A DNA stretch of 64,000 nt. Source: Escherichia phage YUEEL01. Where the stretch lies: the sequence record NC_054935.2. One strand, given 5' to 3'. A program made the position numbers and the translations under genes. Under the pieces are notes generated by a model. That model searched no databases and was not told the DNA's origin. It saw nothing but the letters and a program-made list of their open reading frames with translations. This document shows, in pieces, positions 2,134 through 63,553 of the stretch; position 1 is the first letter of the stretch; each line of letters begins with the position of its first letter.

Positions 2134-3093
2134 ATGATTACCGTAAATGAAAAAGAACACATTCTTGAACAGAAATATCGTCCATCTACTATCGATGAAT
2201 GTATTCTTCCCGCCTTTGATAAAGAAACCTTTAAATCTATTACAAGTAAAGGTAAGATTCCACATATTATTCTTCATTCTCCTTCTCCAGGAACAGGTAA
2301 AACAACTGTAGCAAAAGCATTGTGTCATGATGTAAATGCTGATATGATGTTTGTGAATGGTTCAGATTGTAAAATTGATTTCGTTCGTGGTCCTTTGACT
2401 AATTTTGCCAGCGCCGCTTCATTTGATGGTCGTCAAAAAGTAATCGTTATTGATGAATTTGACCGTTCAGGTTTAGCAGAATCTCAGCGACATCTTCGTT
2501 CCTTTATGGAAGCTTATAGTTCAAACTGTAGTATTATTATTACTGCTAACAATATTGATGGTATTATTAAACCACTTCAGTCACGCTGCCGAGTTATTAC
2601 GTTCGGTCAACCGACCGATGAAGATAAAATTGAAATGATGAAGCAGATGATTCGTCGATTGACTGAAATCTGTAAGCATGAAGGAATTGCTATAGCTGAT
2701 ATGAAAGTTGTAGCAGCTTTGGTTAAAAAGAATTTTCCTGATTTTCGTAAAACTATTGGCGAGCTCGATAGTTATTCATCTAAAGGTGTTTTGGATGCTG
2801 GTATTTTATCACTGGTTACTAACGATCGTGGTGCTATTGATGATGTTCTTGAGTCTCTCAAAAATAAAGATGTTAAACAACTCAGAGCTTTAGCACCAAA
2901 ATATGCAGCTGATTATTCGTGGTTCGTTGGTAAACTTGCCGAAGAAATCTATTCACGTGTAACTCCGCAGAGTATTATTCGTATGTACGAAATTGTAGGC
3001 GAAAATAATCAGTATCATGGTATTGCAGCTAATACTGAATTGCATTTAGCTTATCTTTTCATTCAATTAGCATGCGAAATGCAGTGGAAGTGA
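2134..3093 (+). CDS. 44: gp44 clamp loader large subunit (AAA+)
   Basis: 319 aa from ATG after GAGGAA SD; Walker A SPGTGKTT; T4 gp44 N-terminus MITVNEKEH. Confidence 0.9.
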
Positions 3094-3094
3094 T

Positions 3095-3658
3095 ATGAGC
3101 TTATTTGAAGATGATATTCAATTAAACGAGCATCAAGTTGCTTGGTATTCAAAAGATTGGACAGCTGTCCAATCCGCTGCTGATTCTTTTAAAGAAAAAG
3201 CTGAAAATGAATTTTTTGAAATAATTGGAGCTATTAATAATAAAACTAAATGCTCTATTGCTCAAAAAGATTATTCAAAATTCATGGTTGAAAATGCATT
3301 ATCACAATTTCCAGAATGCATGCCAGCTGTATATGCAATGAATTTAATCGGTTCTGGATTAAGTGATGAAGCTCATTTTAATTATCTAATGGCTGCAGTT
3401 CCTCGTGGTAAAAGATATGGTAAATGGGCAAAACTGGTTGAAGATTCCACCGAAGTATTGATTATTAAGTTACTTGCTAAACGGTATCAAGTTAATACAA
3501 ATGATGCAATTAACTATAAATCAATTCTTACTAAAAATGGAAAACTACCTTTAGTATTAAAAGAACTTAAAGGTTTAGTCACGGATGATTTTTTGAAAGA
3601 AGTGACTAAGAACGTAAAAGAACAGAAACAACTCAAAAAACTAGCATTGGAATGGTAA
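3095..3658 (+). CDS. 62: gp62 clamp loader small subunit
   Basis: 187 aa; position after 44. Confidence 0.85.
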
Positions 3659-3659
3659 A

Positions 3660-4028
3660 ATGATTGAAATTACTCTTAAAAAACCTGAAGATTTTCTGAA
3701 AGTAAAAGAAACTTTGACTCGTATGGGAATTGCTAATAATAAAGATAAAGTTCTGTATCAGTCCTGTCATATTCTTCAGAAAAAAGGACTATATTATATC
3801 GTTCATTTTAAAGAAATGCTTCGTATGGATGGTCGCCAAGTTGAAATGACAGAAGAAGATGAAGTTCGTCGTGATTCGATTGCATGGCTATTAGAAGATT
3901 GGGGACTGATTGAAATCGTTCCTGGTCAAAGAACTTTTATGAAAGATTTAACTAATAACTTCCGAGTTATTTCTTTTAAACAAAAACATGAATGGAAACT
4001 CGTTCCTAAATATACGATTGGTAATTAA
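3660..4028 (+). CDS. regA: RegA translational repressor
   Basis: 122 aa; position between 62 and 43. Confidence 0.85.
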   Translation: MIEITLKKPEDFLKVKETLTRMGIANNKDKVLYQSCHILQKKGLYYIVHFKEMLRMDGRQVEMTEEDEVRRDSIAWLLEDWGLIEIVPGQRTFMKDLTNNFRVISFKQKHEWKLVPKYTIGN

Positions 4029-4029
4029 T

Positions 4030-4251
4030 ATGACTGCTATAACTCCGCAAGAATACATGGCGTCTCTTAAAGAAAAATATAATCTTTCTGCAACAGAAAC
4101 ACTTTTCGATTTACCAGAAAACCTTCAACTAAAATTTCAGGTAGAATTTCAAAAATTAGTTCACCCAGAACAAAAACACTTTACCGCGGTCGTTAAGTCA
4201 ATTAATGCAGATGGATTGACAATTTTCACCCGACAAATAGTACTAATTTAA
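4030..4251 (+). CDS. small hypothetical protein
   Basis: 73-aa ORF from ATG overlapping regA stop. Confidence 0.35.
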   Translation: MTAITPQEYMASLKEKYNLSATETLFDLPENLQLKFQVEFQKLVHPEQKHFTAVVKSINADGLTIFTRQIVLI

Positions 4252-7142: not shown

Positions 7143-7172
7143 GTTTACAAGAATGTTCTTCCATGGTACTAT
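7143..7172 (+). promoter_or_regulatory. T4-type early promoter
   Basis: GTTTAC, 18 bp spacer, TACTAT; palindromic spacer AAGAATGTTCTT. Confidence 0.6.
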
Positions 7173-7209
7173 ACAACTATCAACTACTGATACGGATTTG
7201 GAGAATAAA

Positions 7210-7446
7210 ATGAAAATTGTTATGGGATGCTTAGCAGTTTGTTTAGTTGCATTAGCAGCAGTTCCATTTGTTAGTGTTGAAAATGATACTCAACCTGTGA
7301 TTGAATCTAGCACTGTTATTCACACTAATGGTAAAATATCAGTTAAAATTGATGATAATCTTCATGTGAATACAAATGGATCTTTAGGTGTGCAAATGGG
7401 TAATACCTGCATAAGCACTACTGGAGTAATTACTACTTGCATTTGA
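7210..7446 (+). CDS. small secreted protein (signal-peptide-like N-terminus)
   Basis: SD GGAGAA then ATG; hydrophobic N-terminus MKIVMGCLAVCLVALAAVPF. Confidence 0.45.
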   Translation: MKIVMGCLAVCLVALAAVPFVSVENDTQPVIESSTVIHTNGKISVKIDDNLHVNTNGSLGVQMGNTCISTTGVITTCI

Positions 7447-8249: not shown

Positions 8250-8990
8250 ATGATTAATGACTCTATGACAGTTGAAGAAATCCGTCTTCATTTGGGGCTT
8301 GCATTAAAAGAAAAAGATTTCGTAGTTGATAAAACTGGCGTTAAAACTATTGAAATTATTGGCGCATCATTTGTAGCAGATGAACCGTTTATTTTTGGCG
8401 CTCTTAATGATGAATACATTCAGCGTGAACTTGAATGGTATAAATCTAAGAGCTTGTTCGTTAAAGATATTCCGGGTGAAACACCGAAGATTTGGCAGCA
8501 GGTAGCATCTTCTAAAGGTGAAATTAACTCGAATTATGGCTGGGCTATCTGGTCAGAAGATAACTATGCCCAGTATGATATGTGTTTAGCTGAACTTGGT
8601 CAAAATCCTGATTCTCGACGTGGTATCATGATTTATACTCGTCCATCCATGCAATTTGACTACAATAAAGATGGTATGTCAGATTTCATGTGTACTAATA
8701 CAGTACAGTACCTGATTCGTGATAAGAAAGTCAATGCAGTAGTAAGCATGCGCTCAAATGACGTGGTCTTCGGATTCCGTAATGATTATGCATGGCAAAA
8801 ATACGTATTAGATAAATTAGTATCTGATTTGAATGCAGGCGATTCAACTCGTCAGTATAAAGCAGGTTCTATTATATGGAATGTTGGAAGTCTTCATGTA
8901 TATTCTCGTCATTTTTACTTGGTTGATCATTGGTGGAATACTGGCGAAACTCATATTGTGAAAAAAGATTATAACGGTGAGTGGAAATGA
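8250..8990 (+). CDS. 42: gp42 dCMP hydroxymethylase
   Basis: 246 aa; thymidylate-synthase-like fold protein at the conserved position. Confidence 0.9.
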   Translation: MINDSMTVEEIRLHLGLALKEKDFVVDKTGVKTIEIIGASFVADEPFIFGALNDEYIQRELEWYKSKSLFVKDIPGETPKIWQQVASSKGEINSNYGWAIWSEDNYAQYDMCLAELGQNPDSRRGIMIYTRPSMQFDYNKDGMSDFMCTNTVQYLIRDKKVNAVVSMRSNDVVFGFRNDYAWQKYVLDKLVSDLNAGDSTRQYKAGSIIWNVGSLHVYSRHFYLVDHWWNTGETHIVKKDYNGEWK

Positions 8991-9829
8991 TTCAATTCGT
9001 AATTCCAAGCTATCAACGTGTAGGGGCAGTTTCTGCCCTTGATATGTTTCCGACTGATTATGAACCTCATATTGTAGTGCGTGAACACGAAGAAAAAGCT
9101 TATTATGATGCCTATGGGTCTAGAGCTAAAATTATAACTATTCCTGATGATGTAAACGGAATTGCCGGTACTCGTAAAGCAATTACTGATATGTATGCAG
9201 GTCAACGAATCTGGATGATTGACGATGATACTACTATCCGTATGAGTTCAATACGAAAGAGAGACGATAAACGGCGCGTAGATAAAATTAATCAATTAAC
9301 TCGTGAACAGTTCTATGAATTGATTCAATATGTTGAGGATGCCATGGATTGCGGATATTATCATGGCCATGCTCGTCTACCAATTTTTAAAATTACTTCA
9401 TCTTGGGGTAATTATCGTGAAAATTCATATGGATTCACGAATACATGGTATGACCTCGGAAAACTTACGACAGAACAAATTGGGTATGGAAAAATTGATT
9501 TATGCGAAGATATGTATGCATTTCTCAATTTAATTAATCAAGGTTATCCGCATTTGGCCTTGTTCAAATATCTAGTTGTATCTGGAAAAGCACAAGCTCC
9601 TGGCGGGTGTAGTTCAATTCGTAGTAATTCTAAACATAATAGAGCGCTTGAGCAAATCAATAGAGAGTTTCCAGAGCAAGCTCGTTGGAAAACTTCTAAT
9701 ATTGAAAAACGAAAATCGTTGGGTGAAGAAGACGAGCCATTAAAGGTTCTTCGCATGTGCGTTTCGCGTAAAGAAAAATCAGAAGCATTTCATAAGTTTA
9801 ATGCTATTCATCCAATAGCAGTTGATTAA
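8987..9829 (+). CDS. putative glycosyltransferase with DXD motif at the beta-gt locus (candidate HMC-DNA glucosyltransferase of non-T4 type)
   Basis: About 280 aa versus T4 beta-gt 351 aa; IPSYQR N-terminus and IWMIDDDTTI (DXD) suggest GT-A fold. Confidence 0.5.
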   Translation: MIQFVIPSYQRVGAVSALDMFPTDYEPHIVVREHEEKAYYDAYGSRAKIITIPDDVNGIAGTRKAITDMYAGQRIWMIDDDTTIRMSSIRKRDDKRRVDKINQLTREQFYELIQYVEDAMDCGYYHGHARLPIFKITSSWGNYRENSYGFTNTWYDLGKLTTEQIGYGKIDLCEDMYAFLNLINQGYPHLALFKYLVVSGKAQAPGGCSSIRSNSKHNRALEQINREFPEQARWKTSNIEKRKSLGEEDEPLKVLRMCVSRKEKSEAFHKFNAIHPIAVD

Positions 9830-13728: not shown

Positions 13729-14085
13729 ATGTATAGTTCTGAATTTTCATATTTAAAAATGGAAAAAATTTCATACGATTTTATAGATGAAAAGGTTTAT
13801 TACAGTTTCCATGAACCACGTTTTAATAGTGAGGTTGGGTTTATTGTAGTAAAAGACAATTTTATTTTAAAAATATATTCAGCATTAAAGGATTTTCATT
13901 ACGAAAATATTAACCTAAAATTTAATAAAGAAAACGTTCGTAATTGTGCAGTAACAATTACAGGAAATAAAGGCACATGTGTTATGCTATCTGATGAAAT
14001 TAATGATTTGCTAAATGATGCCGAAAAGGTTGCTATTCCATCTATTGATGACCAAATTTTTAATGCTTTTATGAATAGAGGTTAA
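13729..14085 (+). CDS. hypothetical protein (61.2-like)
   Basis: 118-aa ORF. Confidence 0.45.
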   Translation: MYSSEFSYLKMEKISYDFIDEKVYYSFHEPRFNSEVGFIVVKDNFILKIYSALKDFHYENINLKFNKENVRNCAVTITGNKGTCVMLSDEINDLLNDAEKVAIPSIDDQIFNAFMNRG

Positions 14086-15579: not shown

Positions 15580-16917
<1,338 letters not shown>

Positions 16918-17498: not shown

Positions 17499-17698
17499 TG
17501 GCTCGTTTAAATAAACGTCAACTTAAGAAAGCCCACAAGAAACGTATTGACCAGCTATTTAAAAATTATGACAAGGAGCTCACATACGAGCTCCTATCTA
17601 ATCAGCTCCACAAAGCTTACACAATTAAAACTGGACATATACAATTAGGTAAGGTGCATGAAGAAGCCTTAAAATTAATTATAGAGCATTCAAAATGA
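17498..17698 (+). CDS. small basic hypothetical protein
   Basis: 66-aa ORF, ATGA overlap with gene 56. Confidence 0.35.
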   Translation: MARLNKRQLKKAHKKRIDQLFKNYDKELTYELLSNQLHKAYTIKTGHIQLGKVHEEALKLIIEHSK

Positions 17699-17882
17699 AA
17701 TTTGATTTTTATGCATGGCAAAAAGCCGGGAGACCGGCTAGTTGAGCATTTGGTTCTGATGGATATAATATTAGAGCTCATTGGAAGTTTAATGCTCCAG
17801 ACGATTATTCTCCGGTAGTTATTAACGGTGATGTTGTTATATTAACTAAAATTGGGTATTTTAACGTTCCGCAAGAATTTAT

Positions 17883-27907: not shown

Positions 27908-28168
27908 ATGAAATATGTTAATCGTTCTATCGCAGCATTAGTATTAGCAGTGTCTTTAGTAGGATGTACTGATGCTGATAATGCAACCAAAGTTTTGTCT
28001 TCAAGTGGGTTTACTAATATTGAAATCACTGGATATAACTGGTTCGGTTGCTCTGAAAATGATTTCCAACACACTGGATTTCGTGCTGTTGGACCTACTG
28101 GGCAGAAAGTAGAAGGAACAGTATGTTCTGGTCTATTCTTCAAGGATTCGACTATCCGTTTTAAATAA
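27908..28168 (+). CDS. predicted lipoprotein
   Basis: Signal peptide with lipobox LVGC; 86 aa. Confidence 0.45.
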   Translation: MKYVNRSIAALVLAVSLVGCTDADNATKVLSSSGFTNIEITGYNWFGCSENDFQHTGFRAVGPTGQKVEGTVCSGLFFKDSTIRFK

Positions 28169-28186
28169 AAGGCCTTCGGGCCTTTA
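28169..28186 (+). terminator. UUCG hairpin
   Basis: AAGGCC-TTCG-GGCCTT then TTA. Confidence 0.4.
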
Positions 28187-28210
28187 GCTTTATGATTACC
28201 GGAGTATAAT
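28184..28210 (+). promoter_or_regulatory. candidate MotA-dependent middle promoter for gene 39
   Basis: ttaGCTTTA box 12 bp upstream of TATAAT. Confidence 0.4.
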
Positions 28211-28237
28211 ATTCCCGAAACCAAACGAGGATAAGTG

Positions 28238-30055
28238 ATGATTAAGAATGAAATTAAAATTCTGAGCGATATTGAACATATCAAAAAGCGTAGCGGCATG
28301 TACATTGGCTCTTCTGCTAATGAAATGCATGAGCGCTTTCTGTTTGGTAAATGGGAAAGTGTTCAGTATGTACCTGGTCTTGTTAAGCTTATTGATGAAA
28401 TTATCGATAACTCAGTAGATGAAGGTATTCGTACTAAGTTTAAATTCGCAAATAAAATTAATGTTACTATTAAAAACAATCAAGTAACAGTTGAAGATAA
28501 CGGTCGTGGTATTCCACAAGCGATGGTTAAAACACCTACTGGTGAAGAAATTCCTGGTCCAGTTGCTGCATGGACTATTCCAAAAGCAGGTGGTAACTTT
28601 GGTGATGATAAAGAACGCGTCACCGGTGGTATGAACGGTGTTGGTTCTAGTTTGACAAACATTTTTTCTGTGATGTTTGTTGGTGAAACTGGCGATGGTC
28701 AAAATAATATTGTAGTTCGTTGTTCAAATGGCATGGAAAATAAATCATGGGAAGATATTCCTGGAAAATGGAAAGGAACCCGTGTTACTTTCATTCCTGA
28801 TTTTATGTCATTTGAAACTAATGAGCTGTCCCAAGTTTATCTTGACATTACACTAGATCGTCTCCAGACACTTGCTGTTGTTTATCCTGATATTCAATTT
28901 ACCTTTAATGGTAAAAAGGTTCAGGGCAATTTTAAGAAATATGCACGACAGTATGATGAACATGCTATTGTTCAAGAACAAGAAAATTGTTCTATTGCGG
29001 TTGGTCGTTCACCTGATGGTTTTCGTCAGTTGACGTACGTCAATAACATTCATACTAAGAATGGTGGCCATCACATTGACTGTGTTATGGATGATATTTG
29101 TGAAGACCTTATTCCACAAATCAAACGTAAGTTCAAAATTGATGTAACTAAAGCACGTGTCAAAGAATGTTTGACTATCGTCATGTTTGTTCGTGATATG
29201 AAAAACATGCGATTTGATTCTCAAACTAAAGAGCGTTTGACTTCTCCATTTGGTGAAATTCGTAGTCATATTCAGCTTGATGCTAAAAAGATTTCACGCG
29301 CTATTTTAAACAATGAAGCAATTTTAATGCCAATTATTGAAGCTGCCTTGGCTCGTAAATTGGCGGCAGAAAAAGCAGCAGAAACTAAAGCAGCTAAAAA
29401 GGCTTCTAAAGCTAAGGTTCATAAACATATTAAAGCGAATCTTTGTGGTAAAGATGCTGATACTACTCTTTTCTTGACTGAGGGCGATTCTGCTATCGGA
29501 TATCTTATTGATGTTCGTGATAAAGAACTTCATGGTGGTTATCCATTGCGTGGTAAAGTTCTCAACAGTTGGGGTATGTCATATGCTGATATACTTAAAA
29601 ACAAAGAACTGTTTGATATTTGCGCAATCACTGGATTAGTTCTCGGTGAAAAAGCTGAAAACTTGAATTATCATAATATCGCTATTATGACTGATGCTGA
29701 CCATGATGGTCTAGGAAGCATTTATCCTTCTCTGCTCGGGTTTTTTAGTAATTGGCCAGAATTGTTTGAGCAAGGACGAATTCGCTTTGTCAAAACTCCT
29801 GTAATCATCGCTCAGGTCGGTAAAAAACAAGAATGGTTTTATACAGTCGCTGAATATGAGAGTGCCAAAGATGCTCTACCTAAACATAGCATCCGTTATA
29901 TTAAAGGACTTGGCTCTTTGGAAAAATCTGAATATCGTGAGATGATTCAAAACCCAGTATATGATGTTGTTAAACTTCCTGAGAACTGGAAAGAGCTTTT
30001 TGAAATGCTCATGGGAGATAATGCTGACCTTCGTAAAGAATGGATGAGCCAGTAG
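28238..30055 (+). CDS. 39: DNA topoisomerase II large (ATPase, GyrB-like) subunit, uninterrupted 39+60 equivalent
   Basis: 605 aa from ATG; T4 N-terminus MIKNEIKILSD; single ORF. Confidence 0.9.
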   Translation: MIKNEIKILSDIEHIKKRSGMYIGSSANEMHERFLFGKWESVQYVPGLVKLIDEIIDNSVDEGIRTKFKFANKINVTIKNNQVTVEDNGRGIPQAMVKTPTGEEIPGPVAAWTIPKAGGNFGDDKERVTGGMNGVGSSLTNIFSVMFVGETGDGQNNIVVRCSNGMENKSWEDIPGKWKGTRVTFIPDFMSFETNELSQVYLDITLDRLQTLAVVYPDIQFTFNGKKVQGNFKKYARQYDEHAIVQEQENCSIAVGRSPDGFRQLTYVNNIHTKNGGHHIDCVMDDICEDLIPQIKRKFKIDVTKARVKECLTIVMFVRDMKNMRFDSQTKERLTSPFGEIRSHIQLDAKKISRAILNNEAILMPIIEAALARKLAAEKAAETKAAKKASKAKVHKHIKANLCGKDADTTLFLTEGDSAIGYLIDVRDKELHGGYPLRGKVLNSWGMSYADILKNKELFDICAITGLVLGEKAENLNYHNIAIMTDADHDGLGSIYPSLLGFFSNWPELFEQGRIRFVKTPVIIAQVGKKQEWFYTVAEYESAKDALPKHSIRYIKGLGSLEKSEYREMIQNPVYDVVKLPENWKELFEMLMGDNADLRKEWMSQ

Positions 30056-30109: not shown

Positions 30110-30313
30110 ATGAAATCATATAAAGTAAATTTAGAACTTTTTGATAAAGCAGTTCATCGAGAATATAGAATCATTCAACGCTTTTTCGATATGGGAGAAG
30201 CCGAAGAATTTAAAAACCGCTTTAAGGATATTAGAGATAAAATTCAATCCGATACCGCAACTAAAGATGAACTACTAGAAGTTGCCGAAGTTATTAAACG
30301 TAATATGAATTAA
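30110..30313 (+). CDS. small hypothetical protein (rIIA.1-like)
   Basis: 67-aa ORF. Confidence 0.4.
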
Positions 30314-33712: not shown

Positions 33713-34042
33713 ATGATTTATTGTATGAATATCGGTGATTCCGACATAAAAGAGATTAAACTGCACGGAAATCATCACGCTAATATTGTGTACTGTAATA
33801 AATTTGAGTTTGGTCACGAAAAACTTGGGTTTCTTTACTGTAATGATGTTATAGTCATGGATAAAAAGGAGCTCGATGAACTTGACCGCGAGTCTTTAGA
33901 TGAAAATGACCGAATTTATTACGGCACTCTTAAAGTATATAACGCTTATCTCAGTGGTAAAAAGGAAAGTCTAAATGCAGAAAACGAATCCGGGTTTACA
34001 GAGACTATTTCAGATTCCGACATTTACCCTATCGAACAGTGA
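33713..34042 (+). CDS. hypothetical protein
   Basis: 109-aa ORF; 3' end overlaps denB start in another frame. Confidence 0.35.
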   Translation: MIYCMNIGDSDIKEIKLHGNHHANIVYCNKFEFGHEKLGFLYCNDVIVMDKKELDELDRESLDENDRIYYGTLKVYNAYLSGKKESLNAENESGFTETISDSDIYPIEQ

Positions 34043-34607: not shown

Positions 34608-34871
34608 ATGAAATTTAAATTTTATTACGCTAAACATAAAATTACCGGTGAATTTATTGCATTTACGACTTCAACTACAGATGAAGGAGATATTTTTACT
34701 GCAGTATTTTTATCAAAATGGGAATCAGATCAACCTTACTTATCATCACGTGAAGATCTCCAACGATTAGTTAATGGAGAATATAATGATTCATGGTCAT
34801 ATTTAGTCCATGATTGTGTTAAAAAGGCAATAAAACAAAAACACTTGGAAATCGTTGAGATTGAACTATGA
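34608..34871 (+). CDS. hypothetical protein
   Basis: 87-aa ORF. Confidence 0.4.
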   Translation: MKFKFYYAKHKITGEFIAFTTSTTDEGDIFTAVFLSKWESDQPYLSSREDLQRLVNGEYNDSWSYLVHDCVKKAIKQKHLEIVEIEL

Positions 34872-36675: not shown

Positions 36676-38004
36676 ATGCAACTGAATAATCGCGATTTAA
36701 AAAGTATCATTGATAATGAAGCATTGGCTTATGCTATGTACACGGTTGAAAATCGTGCTATTCCAAATATGATTGATGGATTTAAGCCAGTTCAACGATT
36801 TGTTATTGCTCGAGCTCTTGATTTGGCACGAGGAAATAAAGATAAGTTTCATAAGCTCGCTTCTATCGCAGGTGGTGTAGCGGACCTTGGATATCACCAT
36901 GGCGAAAACTCTGCACAAGACGCAGGTGCTTTGATGGCTAATACTTGGAATAATAACTTTCCTTTGTTAGATGGTCAAGGAAACTTTGGTTCTCGTACCG
37001 TTCAAAAAGCAGCGGCAAGTCGTTATATTTTTGCTCGTGTAAGTAAAAATTTCTATAACGTATATAAAGATACTGAATATGCTCCGGTACATCAAGATAA
37101 AGAACACATTCCGCCTGCTTTCTATTTGCCTATTATTCCTACCGTTCTTCTTAATGGCGTTTCCGGTATTGCAACTGGTTATGCAACTTACATTCTTCCT
37201 CATAGTGTTTCTTCTGTCAAGAAAGCTGTACTGCAAGCTCTTCAAGGAAAGAAAGTAACTAAACCGAAGGTAGAATTCCCAGAATTTCGTGGTGAAGTCG
37301 TTGAAATTGATGGGCAATATGAAATTCGTGGAACATATAAGTTTACTTCACGAACTCAAATGCATATCACTGAGATTCCGTATAAGTATGATCGTGAAAC
37401 TTACGTGAGTAAAATCTTAGACCCGCTTGAAGATAAAGGCTTCATTACATGGGATGATGCTTGCGGTGAGCATGGTTTTGGCTTTAAAATTAAATTCCGC
37501 AAAGAATACTCTTTGAGCGATAATGAAGAAGAACGCCATGCAAAAATTATGAAAGACTTCGGACTGATTGAGCGTCGTTCTCAGAATATTACTGTCATTA
37601 ATGAGAAAGGAAAGCTACAAGTTTACGATAACGTAGTTGATTTAATTAAAGACTTCGTTGAAGTTCGTAAAACTTATGTCCAAAAACGAATTGATAACAA
37701 AATTAAAGAAACTGAGTCAGCTTTTCGTTTAGCCTTTGCCAAGGCACATTTCATTAAGAAAGTAATTTCAGGTGAAATTGTTGTACAGGGTAAAACTCGT
37801 AAAGAACTGACCGAAGAACTTTCTAAAATTGATATGTATTCTTCTTATGTTGATAAACTAGTTGGAATGAATATTTTTCATATGACTTCTGACGAAGCAA
37901 AGAAACTTGCTGAAGAAGCTAAAGCTAAAAAAGAAGAAAACGAATATTGGAAAACTACTGATGTAGTTACAGAATACACCAAAGATTTAGAGGAAATCAA
38001 ATGA
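36676..38004 (+). CDS. 52: DNA topoisomerase II medium (GyrA-like, catalytic Tyr) subunit
   Basis: 442 aa, exact T4 gp52 length. Confidence 0.9.
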   Translation: MQLNNRDLKSIIDNEALAYAMYTVENRAIPNMIDGFKPVQRFVIARALDLARGNKDKFHKLASIAGGVADLGYHHGENSAQDAGALMANTWNNNFPLLDGQGNFGSRTVQKAAASRYIFARVSKNFYNVYKDTEYAPVHQDKEHIPPAFYLPIIPTVLLNGVSGIATGYATYILPHSVSSVKKAVLQALQGKKVTKPKVEFPEFRGEVVEIDGQYEIRGTYKFTSRTQMHITEIPYKYDRETYVSKILDPLEDKGFITWDDACGEHGFGFKIKFRKEYSLSDNEEERHAKIMKDFGLIERRSQNITVINEKGKLQVYDNVVDLIKDFVEVRKTYVQKRIDNKIKETESAFRLAFAKAHFIKKVISGEIVVQGKTRKELTEELSKIDMYSSYVDKLVGMNIFHMTSDEAKKLAEEAKAKKEENEYWKTTDVVTEYTKDLEEIK

Positions 38005-38285: not shown

Positions 38286-38513
38286 ATGAAATTTAAAATC
38301 GAAAACGAAATCGTTAAAGCTAAAAATGCTCTGACTGCTAACAAACTGGTTGTAGATGGTATTGAATATGATATCTGTGGAGTTCGTGAAGAAAAACCTG
38401 GTGTTCTGACTTTCTTCACAATGATTTTTAAATTTAAAGGTGACACAGAATTCAAACAGTTTGATTTTGCCCATGAAGACGAAATCGAAGTTCGTAATCT
38501 GAACATTAAGTAA
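38286..38513 (+). CDS. small hypothetical protein
   Basis: 75-aa ORF downstream of early promoter. Confidence 0.45.
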   Translation: MKFKIENEIVKAKNALTANKLVVDGIEYDICGVREEKPGVLTFFTMIFKFKGDTEFKQFDFAHEDEIEVRNLNIK

Positions 38514-42161: not shown

Positions 42162-42191
42162 AGACCCTCCTTTTAAGGGTATTTATTCACA

Positions 42192-42974
42192 TTATACTCT
42201 TGGACCATATATTGCTCCAACATTTTGCCACGTTGGAGCAGACCCTATGACGGCATAACCAGCAGCACCGCCATCGTATTCATATCCTTGACCACGAATA
42301 TTACATCTACCTCCTGCGGAGCCAACTTCACCACCAGACCCGCCGCTATAGATACCGTTCACAGACCCTGAGCCTGGTGCAGAAATAGTACCAGCAGTTG
42401 CTCCTGATTGCATATCAATAGATCCGCCCGGCGCGCCAAACGGACGACCGCCACCACCGCCAAAGGTCAATCTCATTTGTGAAAAAGGAGAATAATATCC
42501 GCCGCCGCCACCGCCGCCGCCGCCAGCAATAGCTCCGCCATTATTAATTCTTAGTCTCCCACCAATATCATTTTGAATACAATGACCCCCAGCTGAGCCA
42601 GGACTATTGCTACCGCCATTACCGCCACGGCCATACATCGTTACACCATGTATATTCAGTTGAACATATTCATTCGGTGTATCTCCGTACATGAAGAATA
42701 AAGGAACATCTTTAGAATATGATACTAAATCTCCAGTGATATTAAACACTATAGGTGTACTACCTGCCTCAAAACACCTATCTCGGAACCATTGACCATT
42801 GAAGTTATGATCTGCTCCAAGTGTATGAATAATTTCTCTTGAGCGACCTGCAAATTGACTCATCCAGCAAGGAACACCTAATCTTAATTGACCAGCCGCT
42901 TGACTCATCCATCGTTGTCCTGTTTCATTTACGGATGAACTACCAATCCAACCAGGAACACCAACTACTGCCAT
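42192..42974 (-). CDS. 38: gp38 tail-fibre adhesin of the T2/T6 type (glycine-rich motifs)
   Basis: 260 aa; conserved N-terminus [13 protein letters not shown]; poly-Gly blocks separated by variable segments. Confidence 0.85.
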
Positions 42975-43007
42975 AATTTATCTCCAAAGGGGCAATGCCC
43001 CTTGTTA

Positions 43008-46000
43008 TTAGAATTTAAAGTATTTACCAATTTTGCGAGCAATTTTAGTGAAGAAAGGCGTTTTTAATTCTTTAATTTCTTCACTCATTTCCTGAATGGC
43101 CTTAATTAAAAGAGCATTCACAGCGGAGTTAGAAATTGTCAGAACTTCGTCTGGTTTATCAAGATTGCCAATTTTCGAAATATTAATCGCTTCTGGTAAT
43201 ATTTCTTGTAAATCCTGCGCGATAATGCCGATCTCATGACCGATAATTTCACGGTCGGATAATGATTTAACTTTATCGTAGGTTTTAACTTTCAGTTTAC
43301 CGATTAAATCAGTTGCATTTCCTATATAATCTTCGATGTTTTCTTTGAGGCGACGGTCTGATCGAATATAAACATCGTTAAAGTTTCCGTTACCAGTGGC
43401 ATGAAATTCTCCACTTGCATTGAATTGATAATCAGCAGACTGAACATGGAGAACCGCTGCCGCAGTATTATTACTATCACCGGGACAATGAACGTCCAGA
43501 GCAGCGATGTAGTTACGCCCCCAATCAACCGCTTTCCAAATAGCATGAGCACTATCAACGCTTTGTTGACAGTCAAGCAACAAACCAGCAGGGCGATCTC
43601 TCCAATTCACATAAGCACCACCAGAAACTTCACCGCGAATAAGCCCTTGATCTCCGGCATAAGGAACACGCTCTCCCACTTTAATCATTGCGCCCTGGAA
43701 GTGATGACTAAATGAACCCCCATGATTATTGCGAATATGTAAAATACCCTCATCTGTAGCCCAGATAACAGCCTTTTCTGCATCGCTATCATCTTTAAAC
43801 CAGATGTGGCGAGCACCAACAGAGTTTTTGATAGTGATCCCGCTAGATCCATGCACGGTAAAAGTGCCAGCAACATCAAACGTCAAACTGTTATCTGTCC
43901 TGCGTTCTGTATAGAAGTGATAACCTTTGGAATCACCGACTTCCATCACTGCCGAGCGACCAACTTCTGAATTTCCCCAATTATTGATATGGAATTGTTC
44001 AGAGCTATTATTCATCTGATTTAGGTATAATGTACCATCAGTAAATGTTTCGCCAAAGAAACGAGTTTTAATTGCACCTGTCGCTAAAGTACGTTCAGTG
44101 GAAAAATGGGCGCCTTGACTATCTTCTAACTGGATGATGTTATCACGAGCATTATTACTATCACCCCAATGGTTAAATTTAAAATAATCTCGTGATCCTA
44201 AACGTCCGGCATCAAAAGTCAGCAAGCCTTTCATGTTAATATCACCGCCAAAAAATGCGGTGAGAGAATCACGTTTTAATTTTAAAACGCTACCACGAGT
44301 AGTACCACCCAAAGTAACATCACCAGTGTTCAATTCATAACTGAAAGGTCTATTTGCATTAAAGTTTCCATCTTTATCATTCTCGTCAGTAGAAAGTAGA
44401 TAAAACCTGCTACTATCAGCACGCCAAATAACATCATAATTACTACTAGCGGTCATACGGAATGCATTAGATGAGCGGAATTTAACTTCTGTATTAAATG
44501 TTGTAGTTGATTTAAACGTTGTTGAACCACCAAAGTTAACAGCACCATTAAAATCTTGTTGAGCTGTCCATTTGTGGCTACCATCTTCAAGAACAACACG
44601 ACGAACTCTGAAACTTCTATTTCCCGGATTACCAGCAACACGAACGACAAAATAACGGTAGTTAGCTTGTGACACAGTACCACGCCAAACCTGAACAGTA
44701 CGCCCTGTGCTAGTGTGTTCGCTAGGACCGACGGAAAACAGAATCAAGTTTCCGTCAATCGTACCCCAATCCATATTTGCTGGCATGTTCTTTATTTTGT
44801 TCAAAGGAACGCTAAACATACTGCCAGGAACAAAATCAAATGTGTTCCAATCTAGCTCCGCTAATTGAGATTTAACACCACCCATACCCAAAGTAATTGG
44901 CAGAGAATAAGATGTGTATACTTCGTTCCATGCACCCCAAACACTATTAGTATATGCACGCTCAAAAATACGTCCGCGAGTAGTTGTACCTGTTCCGGCA
45001 GTAGTAAATTTTTGGAAAATAGCACCACCAGAAGCACGCTGTTTAACTTCTAGCAAACCAACAATAACGGCTGGTAAACCTTCACCGGTAGGACAGTTAA
45101 TAACGGCATCAGTGCCTAAAATGTTATATAACCCAGGAGCTTTAAAATCATTCAGATCTCCATCATAGAAAGTCGCTGGTGTGCCATGACCAACCTGCTT
45201 CCATTCCTCCCACTTAGGTGCACTAGCATCCCATGCAGCAGCGAGACAACGAGTATAAACCATACCCATGCGGGTAGTATAACGCTGCGTTCTTGTGTAT
45301 AAACCACCTTCAAATATTTCTAAAAATCCTTGTGCGGCTGATCCTTCTTCTGGATAATGGCGATCAAATGATGCGATTGCGCTTGAACTGTTTCTCCATA
45401 AGCCACAATGTTCTAATTCTCCCAAGCTATCAAGGTCAATCGTTTGTGAAAGTGGACGAGTTGACGCTTGAACATTACGCCACACACCCCATGGACCATC
45501 GACGCCATTCCATTTAGCAGATAAGGAACGAATATAGACGTTACCAGATCTTACAGTATAACGCTGAGTGCCAGCAAATTGGCCGGCCACAAATACTTCT
45601 AGTACACCTACGGCATTTTCTTCTGGGAATTTATTTGCTGGTTGCGCATTTGTTGAAGTAGATTTCGACCAAACACCAAGATATTCTTCAATGGGCCCAT
45701 ACGTATCTAAATTAGCATCAGTAGGTAATTCGCCATTATTTTTTATAAACGTTGTGCTATTGACATTTATGTCAGATGGAGTTAGCGTGATATCTTTTGA
45801 CCCATCAAAGGATATACCATTAATTTTTCGTGCTGTTTTTAATTTCGTTGCAGTTGCAGCGTTACCTGTTAAATTTCCAATTATATTTCCATTAACAGTT
45901 AAAGAACCATCAATTGTTCCTCCATATTTTAAACCTAATTCTATAACACTGCCTGAGTCATCTTTTGTGAAAATTGTTTTATCTTTTAAATTAATAGCCA

Positions 46001-46085
46001 ATTCACCTTCGGCTAATACTGAAGCAGCAGGACGTTGACCTGCAGTTTTGCTTCTTTTAAATTGTATTTGTTTTAAAGTAGCCAT
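43008..46085 (-). CDS. 37: gp37 long tail fibre distal subunit
   Basis: 1025 aa; position between 36 and 38. Confidence 0.9.
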
Positions 46086-56250: not shown

Positions 56251-56586
56251 ATGTCTGACATTCATGTAACTGGAATTTCCCAAGTAAACATTCGCTGCCA
56301 ATTTAAAACTGTACCTGGGGTGACTCATATTACTTTATCACACGACCCATATTCTCGTGGAAGACAGTTAACTGGCGTAATTAAGTTTTTCGGTGGAATT
56401 GGCGGAAACGAATTTACTATAGGCGATGACGAAATTGTTGGCTGTAAACTAAAAGTTCAAAAGGGCGTGTTAGAACTTTTTAGTGATGAAGTTTTTGATG
56501 AAATCTCACAAGCAGTTAATAAAGGACTGCTAACGTTAATTAAAATGATTAAAGCTAGTGGATATGTTCCCGATCCTTTATATTAG
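56251..56586 (+). CDS. hypothetical protein
   Basis: 111-aa ORF. Confidence 0.4.
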   Translation: MSDIHVTGISQVNIRCQFKTVPGVTHITLSHDPYSRGRQLTGVIKFFGGIGGNEFTIGDDEIVGCKLKVQKGVLELFSDEVFDEISQAVNKGLLTLIKMIKASGYVPDPLY

Positions 56587-56594
56587 GAGATAAT

Positions 56595-56837
56595 ATGATT
56601 TTTGTATTTGAATTTATGAATGATGAATTCGATTATGCAATTTTTAACGCATTGCATAATCCTGATTTAAATGAATTTAATGAAATGTTTTCTGACGCTT
56701 TGAGTATGTCAGAAGAATACTGTGGAGAATGTCAACGTGTTTGTGTGACAGTTTTTGAAAACAAAGAAAAGACATATGAAGAATTATTTTTTGATGCTAA
56801 TAAAGCCACTGAATGGTTTATTGAAAGGGGGTTTTGA
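56595..56837 (+). CDS. hypothetical protein
   Basis: 80-aa ORF. Confidence 0.4.
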   Translation: MIFVFEFMNDEFDYAIFNALHNPDLNEFNEMFSDALSMSEEYCGECQRVCVTVFENKEKTYEELFFDANKATEWFIERGF

Positions 56838-57624
<787 letters not shown>

Positions 57625-57625
<1 letters not shown>

Positions 57626-58173
57626 TGAAACAATACCAATTTTTAATTAAAGATATCCTGGAAAATGGCTATGAAACCGATGACCGAACAGGCACAGGAA
57701 CAATTGCTTTGTTCGGTACTAAATTGCGCTGGGATTTAAGTAAAGGTTTTCCTGCAGTAACAACTAAGAAGCTCGCCTGGAAAGCTTGCATTGCTGAGCT
57801 CCTTTGGTTTTTATCGGGAAGCACAAATGTCAATGATTTGCGATTAATTCAACATGATTCATTAATTCAAGGCAAAACAGTCTGGGATGAAAATTACGAA
57901 AATCAAGCAAAAGATTTAGGATATCATAGTGGTGAACTTGGTCCAATTTATGGAAAACAATGGCGTGATTTTGGCGGTGTAGACCAAATTATAGAAGTTG
58001 TTGATCGTATTAAAAAACTACCAAATGATAGGCGTCAAATTGTTTCTGCATGGAATCCAGCTGAACTTAAATATATGGCATTACCGCCTTGTCATATGTT
58101 CTATCAGTTTAATGTGCGTAATGGCTATTTGGATTTGCAGTGGTATCAACGTTCGGTAGATGTTTTCTTGGGT
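57625..58173 (+). CDS. td: thymidylate synthase, exon 1
   Basis: Starts MKQYQ; ends ...QRSVDVFLG exactly at the T4 td 5' splice site. Confidence 0.9.
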
Positions 58174-59189
58174 TAATTGAGGCCTGAGTATAAGGTGACT
58201 TATACTTGTAATCTATCTAAACGGGGAAACTCTCTAGTAGACAATCCCGTGCTAAATTGTAGGACTGCCCTTTAATAAATACTTCTATATTCAAAGAGGT
58301 ATTTATGAAAAGCGGAATTTATCAGATTAAAAATACTTTAAACAATAAAGTATATGTAGGAAGTGCTAAAGATTTTGAAAAGAGATGGAAGAGGCATTTT
58401 AAAGATTTAGAAAAAGGATGCCATTCTTCTATAAAACTTCAGAGGTCTTTTAACAAACATGGTAATGTGTTTGAATGTTCTATTTTGGAAGAAATTCCAT
58501 ATGAGAAAGATTTGATTATTGAACGAGAAAATTTTTGGATTAAAGAGCTTAATTCTAAAATTAATGGATACAATATTGCTGACGCAACGTTTGGTGATAC
58601 ATGTTCTACGCATCCATTAAAAGAAGAAATTATTAAGAAACGTTCTGAAACTGTTAAAGCTAAGATGCTTAAACTTGGACCTGATGGTCGGAAAGCTCTT
58701 TACAGTAAACCCGGAAGTAAAAACGGGCGTTGGAATCCAGAAACCCATAAGTTTTGTAAGTGCGGTGTTCGCATACAAACTTCTGCTTATACTTGTAGTA
58801 AATGCAGAAATCGTTCAGGTGAAAATAATTCATTCTTTAATCATAAGCATTCAGACATAACTAAATCTAAAATATCAGAAAAGATGAAAGGTAAAAAGCC
58901 TAGTAATATTAAAAAGATTTCATGTGATGGGGTTATTTTTGATTGTGCAGCAGATGCAGCTAGACATTTTAAAATTTCGTCTGGATTAGTTACTTATCGT
59001 GTAAAATCTGATAAATGGAATTGGTTCTACATAAATGCCTAACGACTATCCCTTTGGGGAGTAGGGTCAAGTGACTCGAAACGATAGACAACTTGCTTTA
59101 ACAAGTTGGAGATATAGTCTGATCTGCATGGTGACATGCAGCTGGATATAATTCCGGGGTAAGATTAACGACCTTATCTGAACATAATG
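58174..59189 (+). mobile_element. group I self-splicing intron in td (1016 nt) carrying homing endonuclease ORF
   Basis: 5' end TAATTGAGGCCTGAGTATAAGGTGAC and 3' end ...AACATAATG match recalled T4 td intron; exon frames join to ...VFLG|LPFNIASYA. Confidence 0.85.
58305..59042 (+). CDS. I-TevI: I-TevI GIY-YIG homing endonuclease (intron-encoded)
   Basis: 245 aa; N-terminal GIYQIKN...YVGSA GIY-YIG motif; sequence recognised. Confidence 0.9.
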   Translation: MKSGIYQIKNTLNNKVYVGSAKDFEKRWKRHFKDLEKGCHSSIKLQRSFNKHGNVFECSILEEIPYEKDLIIERENFWIKELNSKINGYNIADATFGDTCSTHPLKEEIIKKRSETVKAKMLKLGPDGRKALYSKPGSKNGRWNPETHKFCKCGVRIQTSAYTCSKCRNRSGENNSFFNHKHSDITKSKISEKMKGKKPSNIKKISCDGVIFDCAADAARHFKISSGLVTYRVKSDKWNWFYINA

Positions 59190-59501
59190 CTTCCATTTAA
59201 TATTGCATCATACGCTGCGTTAGTTCATATTGTAGCTAAGATGTGTAATCTTATTCCGGGAGATTTGATATTTTCTGGTGGTAATACTCATATCTATATG
59301 AATCACGTAGAACAATGTAAAGAAATTTTGCGTCGTGAACCTATGGATTTATGCGAATTGCAATTAAAATTTCCAGATGAATTCGATGAATGGGGTACAG
59401 AATCACAGGTATTTTGGTTGAGTCAATTCGCAAAGCCGCATAATTTTGTTCTTAACAACTATGTATCTCACCCGCCAATTAAAGGAAAGATGGCGGTGTA
59501 A
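59190..59501 (+). CDS. td: thymidylate synthase, exon 2
   Basis: LPFNIASYAALVHI... continues TS reading frame to stop. Confidence 0.9.
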   Translation, partial: LPFNIASYAALVHIVAKMCNLIPGDLIFSGGNTHIYMNHVEQCKEILRREPMDLCELQLKFPDEFDEWGTESQVFWLSQFAKPHNFVLNNYVSHPPIKGKMAV

Positions 59502-62374: not shown

Positions 62375-63553
62375 ATGAGCACAGTTTTTAATACAAATCC
62401 AGTTGATGTTTTAAAAGAACCTATGTTTTTTGGTTCAGGTCTTGGTATTGCGCGTTATGATATTCAACGTCATAAAGTTTTTGAAGATTTAACCGAAAAG
62501 CAATTATCATTTTTCTGGCGTCCTGAAGAAGTAAACTTGATGATGGATGCTGCACAGTTTAATAAGCTTCCTCAGTATCAGCAAAATATTTTTACTAACA
62601 ACTTGAAGTATCAATCACTTTTAGATAGCATTCAGGGTCGCGCGCCATCTGCTGTACTTATGTCATTAATTTCAGACCCAAGCCTTGATACATGGGTTGC
62701 TACATGGACTTTTAGTGAAACTATTCACAGTCGTTCATATACTCATATCATGCGAAATCTTTATACTGATCCATCGAAGGTATTTGATGAAATTGTATTA
62801 GATGAAGCTATTATGAAACGTGCTGAATCCATTGGACGTTATTATGATGATGTTCTGATTAAAACTCGTTATTGGGAAAACGCTAAAGCTGATATCGAAT
62901 ACCAAAAAGAAATTAATGCAGACGAAGACGTTATTGAAGATGCTATTGAGCATGAGACATATTGGAAGCGTGAGCTAATGAAATCTCTTTACCTCTGTTT
63001 GCACGTTATTAATGCATTAGAAGCTATTCGTTTTTATGTATCCTTTGCGTGTACCTTTAACTTCCATAAAAACATGGAAATCATGGAAGGTAATGCCAAG
63101 ATTATGAAGTTCATTGCACGTGATGAGCAGCTTCATCTTAAAGGTACACAATATATTATTCGTCAACTTCAATCTGGTACTGATGGCGATCAATGGGTTA
63201 AAATTGCTCAAGAGTGTGAACAAGAAGCAGTTGATATTTTCATGGAAGTTAACCGTCAAGAAAAAGATTGGGCAGTTCATTTATTTAAAGATGGCGATGT
63301 TCCTGGATTAAATACAAATAGCATGTGGAGCTTTATTGATTACTTAACTGTATCTCGTATGAAACAGTGTGGTCTTCCATGCCCAATTACCGATGCTCCG
63401 GTTAAACATCCGTATCCTTGGATTCGTGAATACCTTAATTCTGATAATGTTCAATCCGCACCACAAGAAGTAGAACTGTCATCTTACCTTGTAGCACAGA
63501 TTGATAATGATGTTGATGATAAAGTTATGATGAGTTTTAAAAAATATTTTTAA
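62375..63553 (+). CDS. nrdB: ribonucleotide reductase small subunit; uninterrupted (no intron)
   Basis: 392 aa single ORF; directly downstream of nrdA. Confidence 0.9.
   Translation: MSTVFNTNPVDVLKEPMFFGSGLGIARYDIQRHKVFEDLTEKQLSFFWRPEEVNLMMDAAQFNKLPQYQQNIFTNNLKYQSLLDSIQGRAPSAVLMSLISDPSLDTWVATWTFSETIHSRSYTHIMRNLYTDPSKVFDEIVLDEAIMKRAESIGRYYDDVLIKTRYWENAKADIEYQKEINADEDVIEDAIEHETYWKRELMKSLYLCLHVINALEAIRFYVSFACTFNFHKNMEIMEGNAKIMKFIARDEQLHLKGTQYIIRQLQSGTDGDQWVKIAQECEQEAVDIFMEVNRQEKDWAVHLFKDGDVPGLNTNSMWSFIDYLTVSRMKQCGLPCPITDAPVKHPYPWIREYLNSDNVQSAPQEVELSSYLVAQIDNDVDDKVMMSFKKYF

Follow-up and report, generated by a model that had tools for sequence, protein, structure and literature searches.

A continuous gene 39 for the large subunit of topoisomerase II in a Tequatrovirus without the MobA/bypass element of T4

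The large subunit of the DNA topoisomerase II is encoded by one continuous gene 39 in the 64-kb stretch of phage DNA analysed here (the window). Judged from its sequence, this gene is almost certainly the standard, uninvaded T-even allele, whose product is a GyrB-like subunit with GHKL ATPase, transducer and TOPRIM regions. In T4 and a minority of its relatives, the TOPRIM-coding region has been invaded by a mobile element of ~1.1 kb with the HNH endonuclease MobA, short in-frame extensions and a 50-nt untranslated gap; the element splits the gene into 39 and 60, so that ribosomes must hop. The present phage either never took up this element or lost it without trace, and it thus retains the native 63-nt segment (Table 1).

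Reading frame, domains and partner of gp39

The initial annotation had described the large subunit as a single uninterrupted frame of 605 aa, and the ORF list confirms this description. It contains one plus-strand ORF at 28235..30055, which would encode 606 aa if translation started at the GTG. One codon further downstream lies the ATG at 28238, the same start as in T4 and T2 gp39, leaving 605 codons and a TAA stop codon that ends at 30055. With the base composition of the window, the probability of 605 codons without a stop is ~3e-21, and the longest ORF in the remaining five frames of the interval comprises at most 136 aa. On these grounds the ORF is taken to be real and should be translated linearly, in the ordinary way, from position 28238.

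Table 1. Coordinates of gene 39, its neighbours and further features of the window.
Feature	Position	Strand	Basis or remark
Gene 39, unsplit DNA topoisomerase II large (GyrB-like) subunit, 605 aa + stop	28238..30055	+	ORF; comparison with T4, T2 and T6; Pfam
Putative Shine-Dalgarno GAGGA, 6 nt 5' of ATG 28238	28227..28231	+	Read from sequence; presumed function
GHKL ATPase domain, residues 47-149, including EIIDNSVDE, DNGRGIP and GGMNGVGSS motifs	28376..28684	+	Pfam PF02518 HATPase_c, E 2e-9
GyrB transducer domain, residues 250-384, including QTKERL	28985..29389	+	Pfam PF00204 DNA_gyraseB, E 1.5e-13
TOPRIM motif T-E-G-D-S-A, residues 414-419, catalytic Glu	29477..29494	+	Motif location; identical in T4, T2 and T6
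Native 63-nt segment, gene nt 1420-1482, replaced in T4 by the ~1.1-kb MobA element	29657..29719	+	blastn, per-site comparison
TOPRIM acidic cluster D-A-D-H-D-G, residues 486-491	29693..29710	+	Motif location, codon comparison
TOPRIM-associated C-terminal domain TOPRIM_C, residues 519-604, body of T4 gp60	29792..30049	+	Pfam PF16898, E 4.2e-7
rIIA.1, immediate 3' neighbour of gene 39	30110..30313	+	Pfam T4_RIIA1, E 1.4e-33; ORF list
Gene 52, GyrA-like DNA-cleavage subunit	36676..38004	+	Pfam DNA_topoisoIV, E 6e-77; 440/442 identical to T4 gp52
Putative PD-(D/E)xK nuclease-fold ORF, 186 aa, in the 61-dam insertion, without counterpart in T4	15580..16140		TAA overlaps dam ATG
td group I intron, 1016 nt, with the only T4 homing endonuclease kept in the window	58174..59189	+	Intron 5' sequence, exon junctions
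I-TevI within the td intron	58305..59042	+	245/245 identical to T4; Pfam GIY-YIG and I-TevI domains

That this one frame covers what T4 carries as two genes is borne out by comparison with the T4 proteins (translated from NC_000866). The alignment is colinear: by BLASTP, 465 of 473 residues (98%) are identical between positions 1-473 and T4 gp39 1-473, and the C-terminal part does match gp60, with residues 472-605 corresponding to gp60 27-160 (128/134 identical, 96%). Over residues 1-473 and 478-605, identity to gp39 1-473 and gp60 33-160 amounts to 96-98%, and there is no difference in the TOPRIM motifs. In contrast, the 43-aa C-terminal tail of T4 gp39 and the ~30-aa N-terminal head of gp60 have no counterpart in the present phage. 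At the nucleotide level, the last 285 nt of the gene differ from T4 gene 60 at one position (the TOPRIM_C-coding part shows ~99% identity), whereas the 5' part is ~96% identical.

Even closer are the uninterrupted homologues of T2 and T6, from which the present protein differs by two and three residues, respectively. T2 gp39 (LC348380.1, BBC14618.1) has the same length of 605 aa and aligns without gaps at 603/605 identical positions, the differences between T2 and present gp39 being F70L and I452M; the T2 gene shows 97.4% nucleotide identity, with 48 scattered and mostly silent differences. T6 gp39 (PDB 8ylu_C) is identical at 602 of the 605 positions over its full length (99.5%), and none of its substitutions (D172T, I452M and Q526H, with the T6 residue given last) is known to be functional. 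The T6 protein is represented by the cryo-EM entries 8ylu, 8yo1, 8yo5, 8yo7, 8yod and 8yon (Nat Commun 2024, PMC11461880).

All three Pfam matches of gp39 (PF02518, PF00204 and PF16898) exceed the Pfam cut-offs, and the NCBIfam models for GyrB and ParE align end-to-end, at scores under their curated cut-offs. The gene for the cleavage subunit, gene 52, is located 6.6 kb downstream. Its product and gp39 would assemble into a type IIA topoisomerase with two kinds of subunit, as in T2 and T6, the stoichiometry presumably being that of an A2B2 heterotetramer. T2 and T6 possess a two-subunit topoisomerase II, and the T4 insertion was described to be without effect on activity; for the T6 enzyme (gp39 and gp52), an m-AMSA-sensitive relaxation activity has been measured (PMC11461880). 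Given the 99.5% identity to T6 gp39, we infer that the gp39/gp52 complex of the present phage would likewise relax DNA in an ATP-dependent manner.

The surroundings of the gene also resemble those of T2, as the order 39.1 - 39 - rIIA.1 - rIIA is common to both phages. T2, however, has an additional ORF between 39.2 and 39.1, which is found in SHFML-11 as well and is missing here. The 39.1 homologue (27908..28168, +) encodes 86 aa compared with 65 aa in T4 and features a lipoprotein-like N-terminal signal ending in LVGC. Just 5' of gene 39, at 28169..28190, a GGCC-TTCG-GGCC hairpin is followed by a T-rich stretch.

The TOPRIM junction and the MobA/bypass element

At the position of the T4 split, codon-level comparison revealed an in-frame junction reading GAC CAT GAT GGT CTA GGA AGC. 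In T4 gene 60, the 50-nt gap, which begins with TAG, comes between the corresponding codons GAT CAC GAT GGA and TTA GGT TCT, where the frame resumes. The last residue of the DADHDG cluster, G491 (GGT), corresponds to the GGA take-off codon of T4, and CTA GGA AGC follows here directly, without a coding gap. The T4 gap, with its take-off codon, adjacent UAG stop, hairpin and GGA landing site, thus has no equivalent in this gene.

The alignment with the T4 genome by blastn stops at window position 29655 (T4 3911) and restarts at 29720 (T4 2793); the T4 sequence in between (3910..2794) was not found in the window. Consistently, a per-site comparison of gene 39 with T4 gave only one dense cluster of differences, at gene nt 1419-1482. 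The 63-nt segment lying here differs from T2 by one silent nucleotide, an ATC/ATT difference, and is only ~67% identical to homR, the copy borne by the T4 element. In T4, the ~1.1-kb element consists of the C-terminal extension, a mobA pseudogene with 60.1, the N-terminal extension, homR and the 50-nt bypass. For clade 1, to which T4 belongs, element boundaries after residue 473 and after G491 plus 9 nt, together with a 64-nt parental deletion, have been published (bioRxiv 10.1101/2022.08.31.505936), and the breakpoints between the present phage and T4 (gene nt 1419/1420 and 1482/1483) coincide with them. The alleles termed "Parental Topo2L" in the same work, e.g., RB14 "gp60plus39", are likewise uninterrupted ORFs that are highly similar to a MobA-bearing relative and have matching breakpoints. 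No difference from this type was found, and the present gene is one further parental allele.

According to the initial annotation, gene 60 as a separate gene, mobA and the translational bypass element are all lacking, and this holds: besides the in-frame junction, no component of the cassette was detected by tblastn or blastn-short. Searched over the window by tblastn, the intact MobA of HY01 and T4 gp60.1 gave best E-values of 4.6 and 1.3, both elsewhere than gene 39, and the C-terminal extension of T4 gp39 gave no match (all misses of cassette components in the window have E > 0.5). The sole match of the gp60 N-terminal extension was its homR part (residues 27-46), which hits native TOPRIM sequence; its unique part matched nothing, and blastn-short with the 50-nt bypass cassette returned only chance matches of at most 15 nt in the window. 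Moreover, rIIA.1 (30110) starts so close behind the stop codon of gene 39 (30055), with a spacer of 54 nt, that neither gene 60 nor mobA could be accommodated. The possibilities that the cassette had moved or decayed, or had left a "hit-and-run" scar, were also considered and rejected, as no remnant of MobA, gp60.1, the extensions or the cassette occurs anywhere in the window.

An alternative to an allele that was never invaded is a healed one, in which case the MobA/bypass element was present in an ancestor and disappeared later, through precise deletion or through recombination with the uninterrupted allele of a co-infecting phage. The 3' 285 nt, being nearly identical to T4 gene 60 next to a 5' part of ~96% identity, make a recent ancestry shared with the MobA lineage conceivable, other clades provide documented examples in which endonuclease and cassette were lost, and recombination with an empty allele would give exactly the present state. 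T-even genomes are mosaic, however, so that one near-identical stretch is weak evidence. Furthermore, the "hit-and-run" alleles of those other clades retain the insert-derived C- and N-terminal extensions in a fused ORF after losing endonuclease and cassette, whereas the present gene has no trace of either extension, and its 63-nt segment is parental and not of the homR type. We therefore regard healing as improbable; between a healed and a never-invaded allele there would be no functional difference. That the real phage is split and the continuous gene arose in assembly or consensus calling, by collapse of mixed reads or omission of the element, has a practically negligible probability: nothing specific speaks for it apart from the window not being identical to any record of the phage collection, 465 independent phage records, T2 and RB14 among them, are colinear with the junction at every base, both flanks align without rearrangement, and the product is 99.5% identical to the expressed, active and structurally solved T6 protein.

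For the uninvaded allele favoured here, published crosses allow a prediction. MobA nicks the uninterrupted T2 gene in the segment that is replaced in T4 and transfers split and bypass to T2; once in place, the bypass insert guards the gene from being nicked again (bioRxiv 10.1101/2022.08.31.505936). Since the native 63-nt segment is one silent nucleotide away from T2, and given these T4 x T2 crosses, it is predicted to be an unoccupied MobA homing site. In an infection shared with a MobA-positive phage, the present allele would then be expected to be nicked and converted to the split form.

Endonucleases, introns and other differences from T4 in the window

Seven homing-endonuclease genes of T4 (Table 1 of PMC2988022) map to the 64-kb window, and the statement of the initial annotation that the genome is largely free of such insertions is assessed here for the window. 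By blastn against T4 and tblastn with the T4 proteins, six of the seven are absent, namely mobA, segF, segA, segG, mobE and I-TevIII. The absence of segF, segG, mobE and the nrdB intron had been claimed before and is upheld by these searches; segA can be added, as it is missing along with beta-gt. Instead of segF, a 66-aa ORF of phrog_5782 is present at 17499..17882, genes 59 and 32 lie 99 nt apart without segG, and mobE is missing together with nrdB.1, giving a spacing of 51 nt between nrdA and nrdB. The nrdB intron with I-TevIII is deleted exactly at 63050/63051; one continuous ORF encodes the 392 aa of NrdB.

The td intron was correctly named as the one T4-type insertion that remains. Its core is 99-100% identical to T4 at the nucleotide level, whereas the td exons (57625..58173 and 59190..59501) are 92-98% identical, and ~190 nt at the 3' end of td (59299..59490) reach only ~66%. 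This mosaic is consistent with a mobile intron that was shared recently and now lies in a gene that has diverged. Rfam searches of the whole window at gathering thresholds gave no match, leaving the td group I intron unreported although it is present by sequence; probably this miss reflects an ORF-containing intron, not absence. Among the segments that do not align to T4, Pfam and PHROGs placed a GIY-YIG domain only in I-TevI, and an HNH domain was found in none of them. Upstream of the intron, frd and td, which overlap in T4, are separated by a 202-nt insertion containing a 68-aa ORF (57419..57625, +; phrog_9550, function unknown).

Although the absence of T4 homing endonucleases thus stands within the window, "free of endonuclease insertions" has to be qualified by an ORF in front of dam. 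Compared with T4, blastn showed a 541-nt insertion between gene 61 and dam, which harbours an ORF of 186 aa (Table 1). All members of its small family share the motif FDIVI...EIK, in keeping with a PD-(D/E)xK nuclease fold; PADLOC reported a REase_II match (E 9e-5), and a Pfam match to DpnII lies under threshold. Copies of the ORF are present in 144 phage records, one of them T2; most are 99-100% identical, and all are labelled hypothetical. A literature search for a nuclease beside T-even dam gave nothing relevant. The genome may therefore carry other nuclease cargo, and being without the T4 endonucleases need not equal being without selfish nucleases; the verdict on the topoisomerase gene is unaffected by this ORF.

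Several further regions differ from T4. In place of T4 beta-gt and segA, the window contains a gene for a 282-aa beta-glucosyl-HMC-alpha-glucosyltransferase of the T2/T6 type (8981..9829, +; phrog_842, Pfam TAGT), which would imply a DNA glucosylation of the T2/T6 type. The receptor-binding module is T2-like, since gp38 (42192..42974, -) is a 260-aa tail-fibre adhesin of the T2 type (Pfam GP38) and not an assembly chaperone as in T4, and since the adjoining gene 37 (43008..46085, -) gave no alignment with T4 across 42186..45931. At the position of T4 61.2, an ORF of 118 aa (13729..14085, +) matches the C-terminal part of Pfam AdfA, the anti-DarT factor A (E 1.8e-8). Small ORFs are found in further insertions relative to T4 (3988..4251, 7153..7446, 33713..34042, 34608..34871, 38286..38513 and 56251..56837), matching Phage_RB18_ORF43, DUF7418, DUF7247 and PHROGs of unknown function; Pfam and PHROGs gave no homing-endonuclease domain in any of them.

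Distribution among relatives and meaning of the locus

To place the locus, the phage collection was searched with a 301-nt query spanning the junction; 465 phage records, among them T2, RB14 ("gp60plus39"), RB7, RB68 and AR1, gave a contiguous match. The sequence inserted in T4 was found in 43 records. With 465 uninterrupted against 43 T4-type records, the unsplit gene is the rule among sequenced relatives and T4 the exception. The unsplit state consequently tells more about T4 than about the present phage. The phage belongs to the genus Tequatrovirus, and its closest records in the collection are vB_EcoM-CHD16UKE1, UPWr_E2 and PYps35T, with ~97.6-97.8% identity and none of them identical.

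The arrangement itself is already known, as both the two-subunit enzyme of T2/T6 and the mobile cassette of MobA and bypass have been published. For annotation, the locus should be called one gene (39) and not 39 plus 60, and no recoding has to be sought here. Beyond annotation, the importance is small. The locus places the phage among the T2/T6-like members that make up most of Tequatrovirus and adds one more parental allele for mapping the boundaries of the MobA/bypass element. In this context, the present phage would be a natural recipient for MobA homing crosses, as T2 already is.
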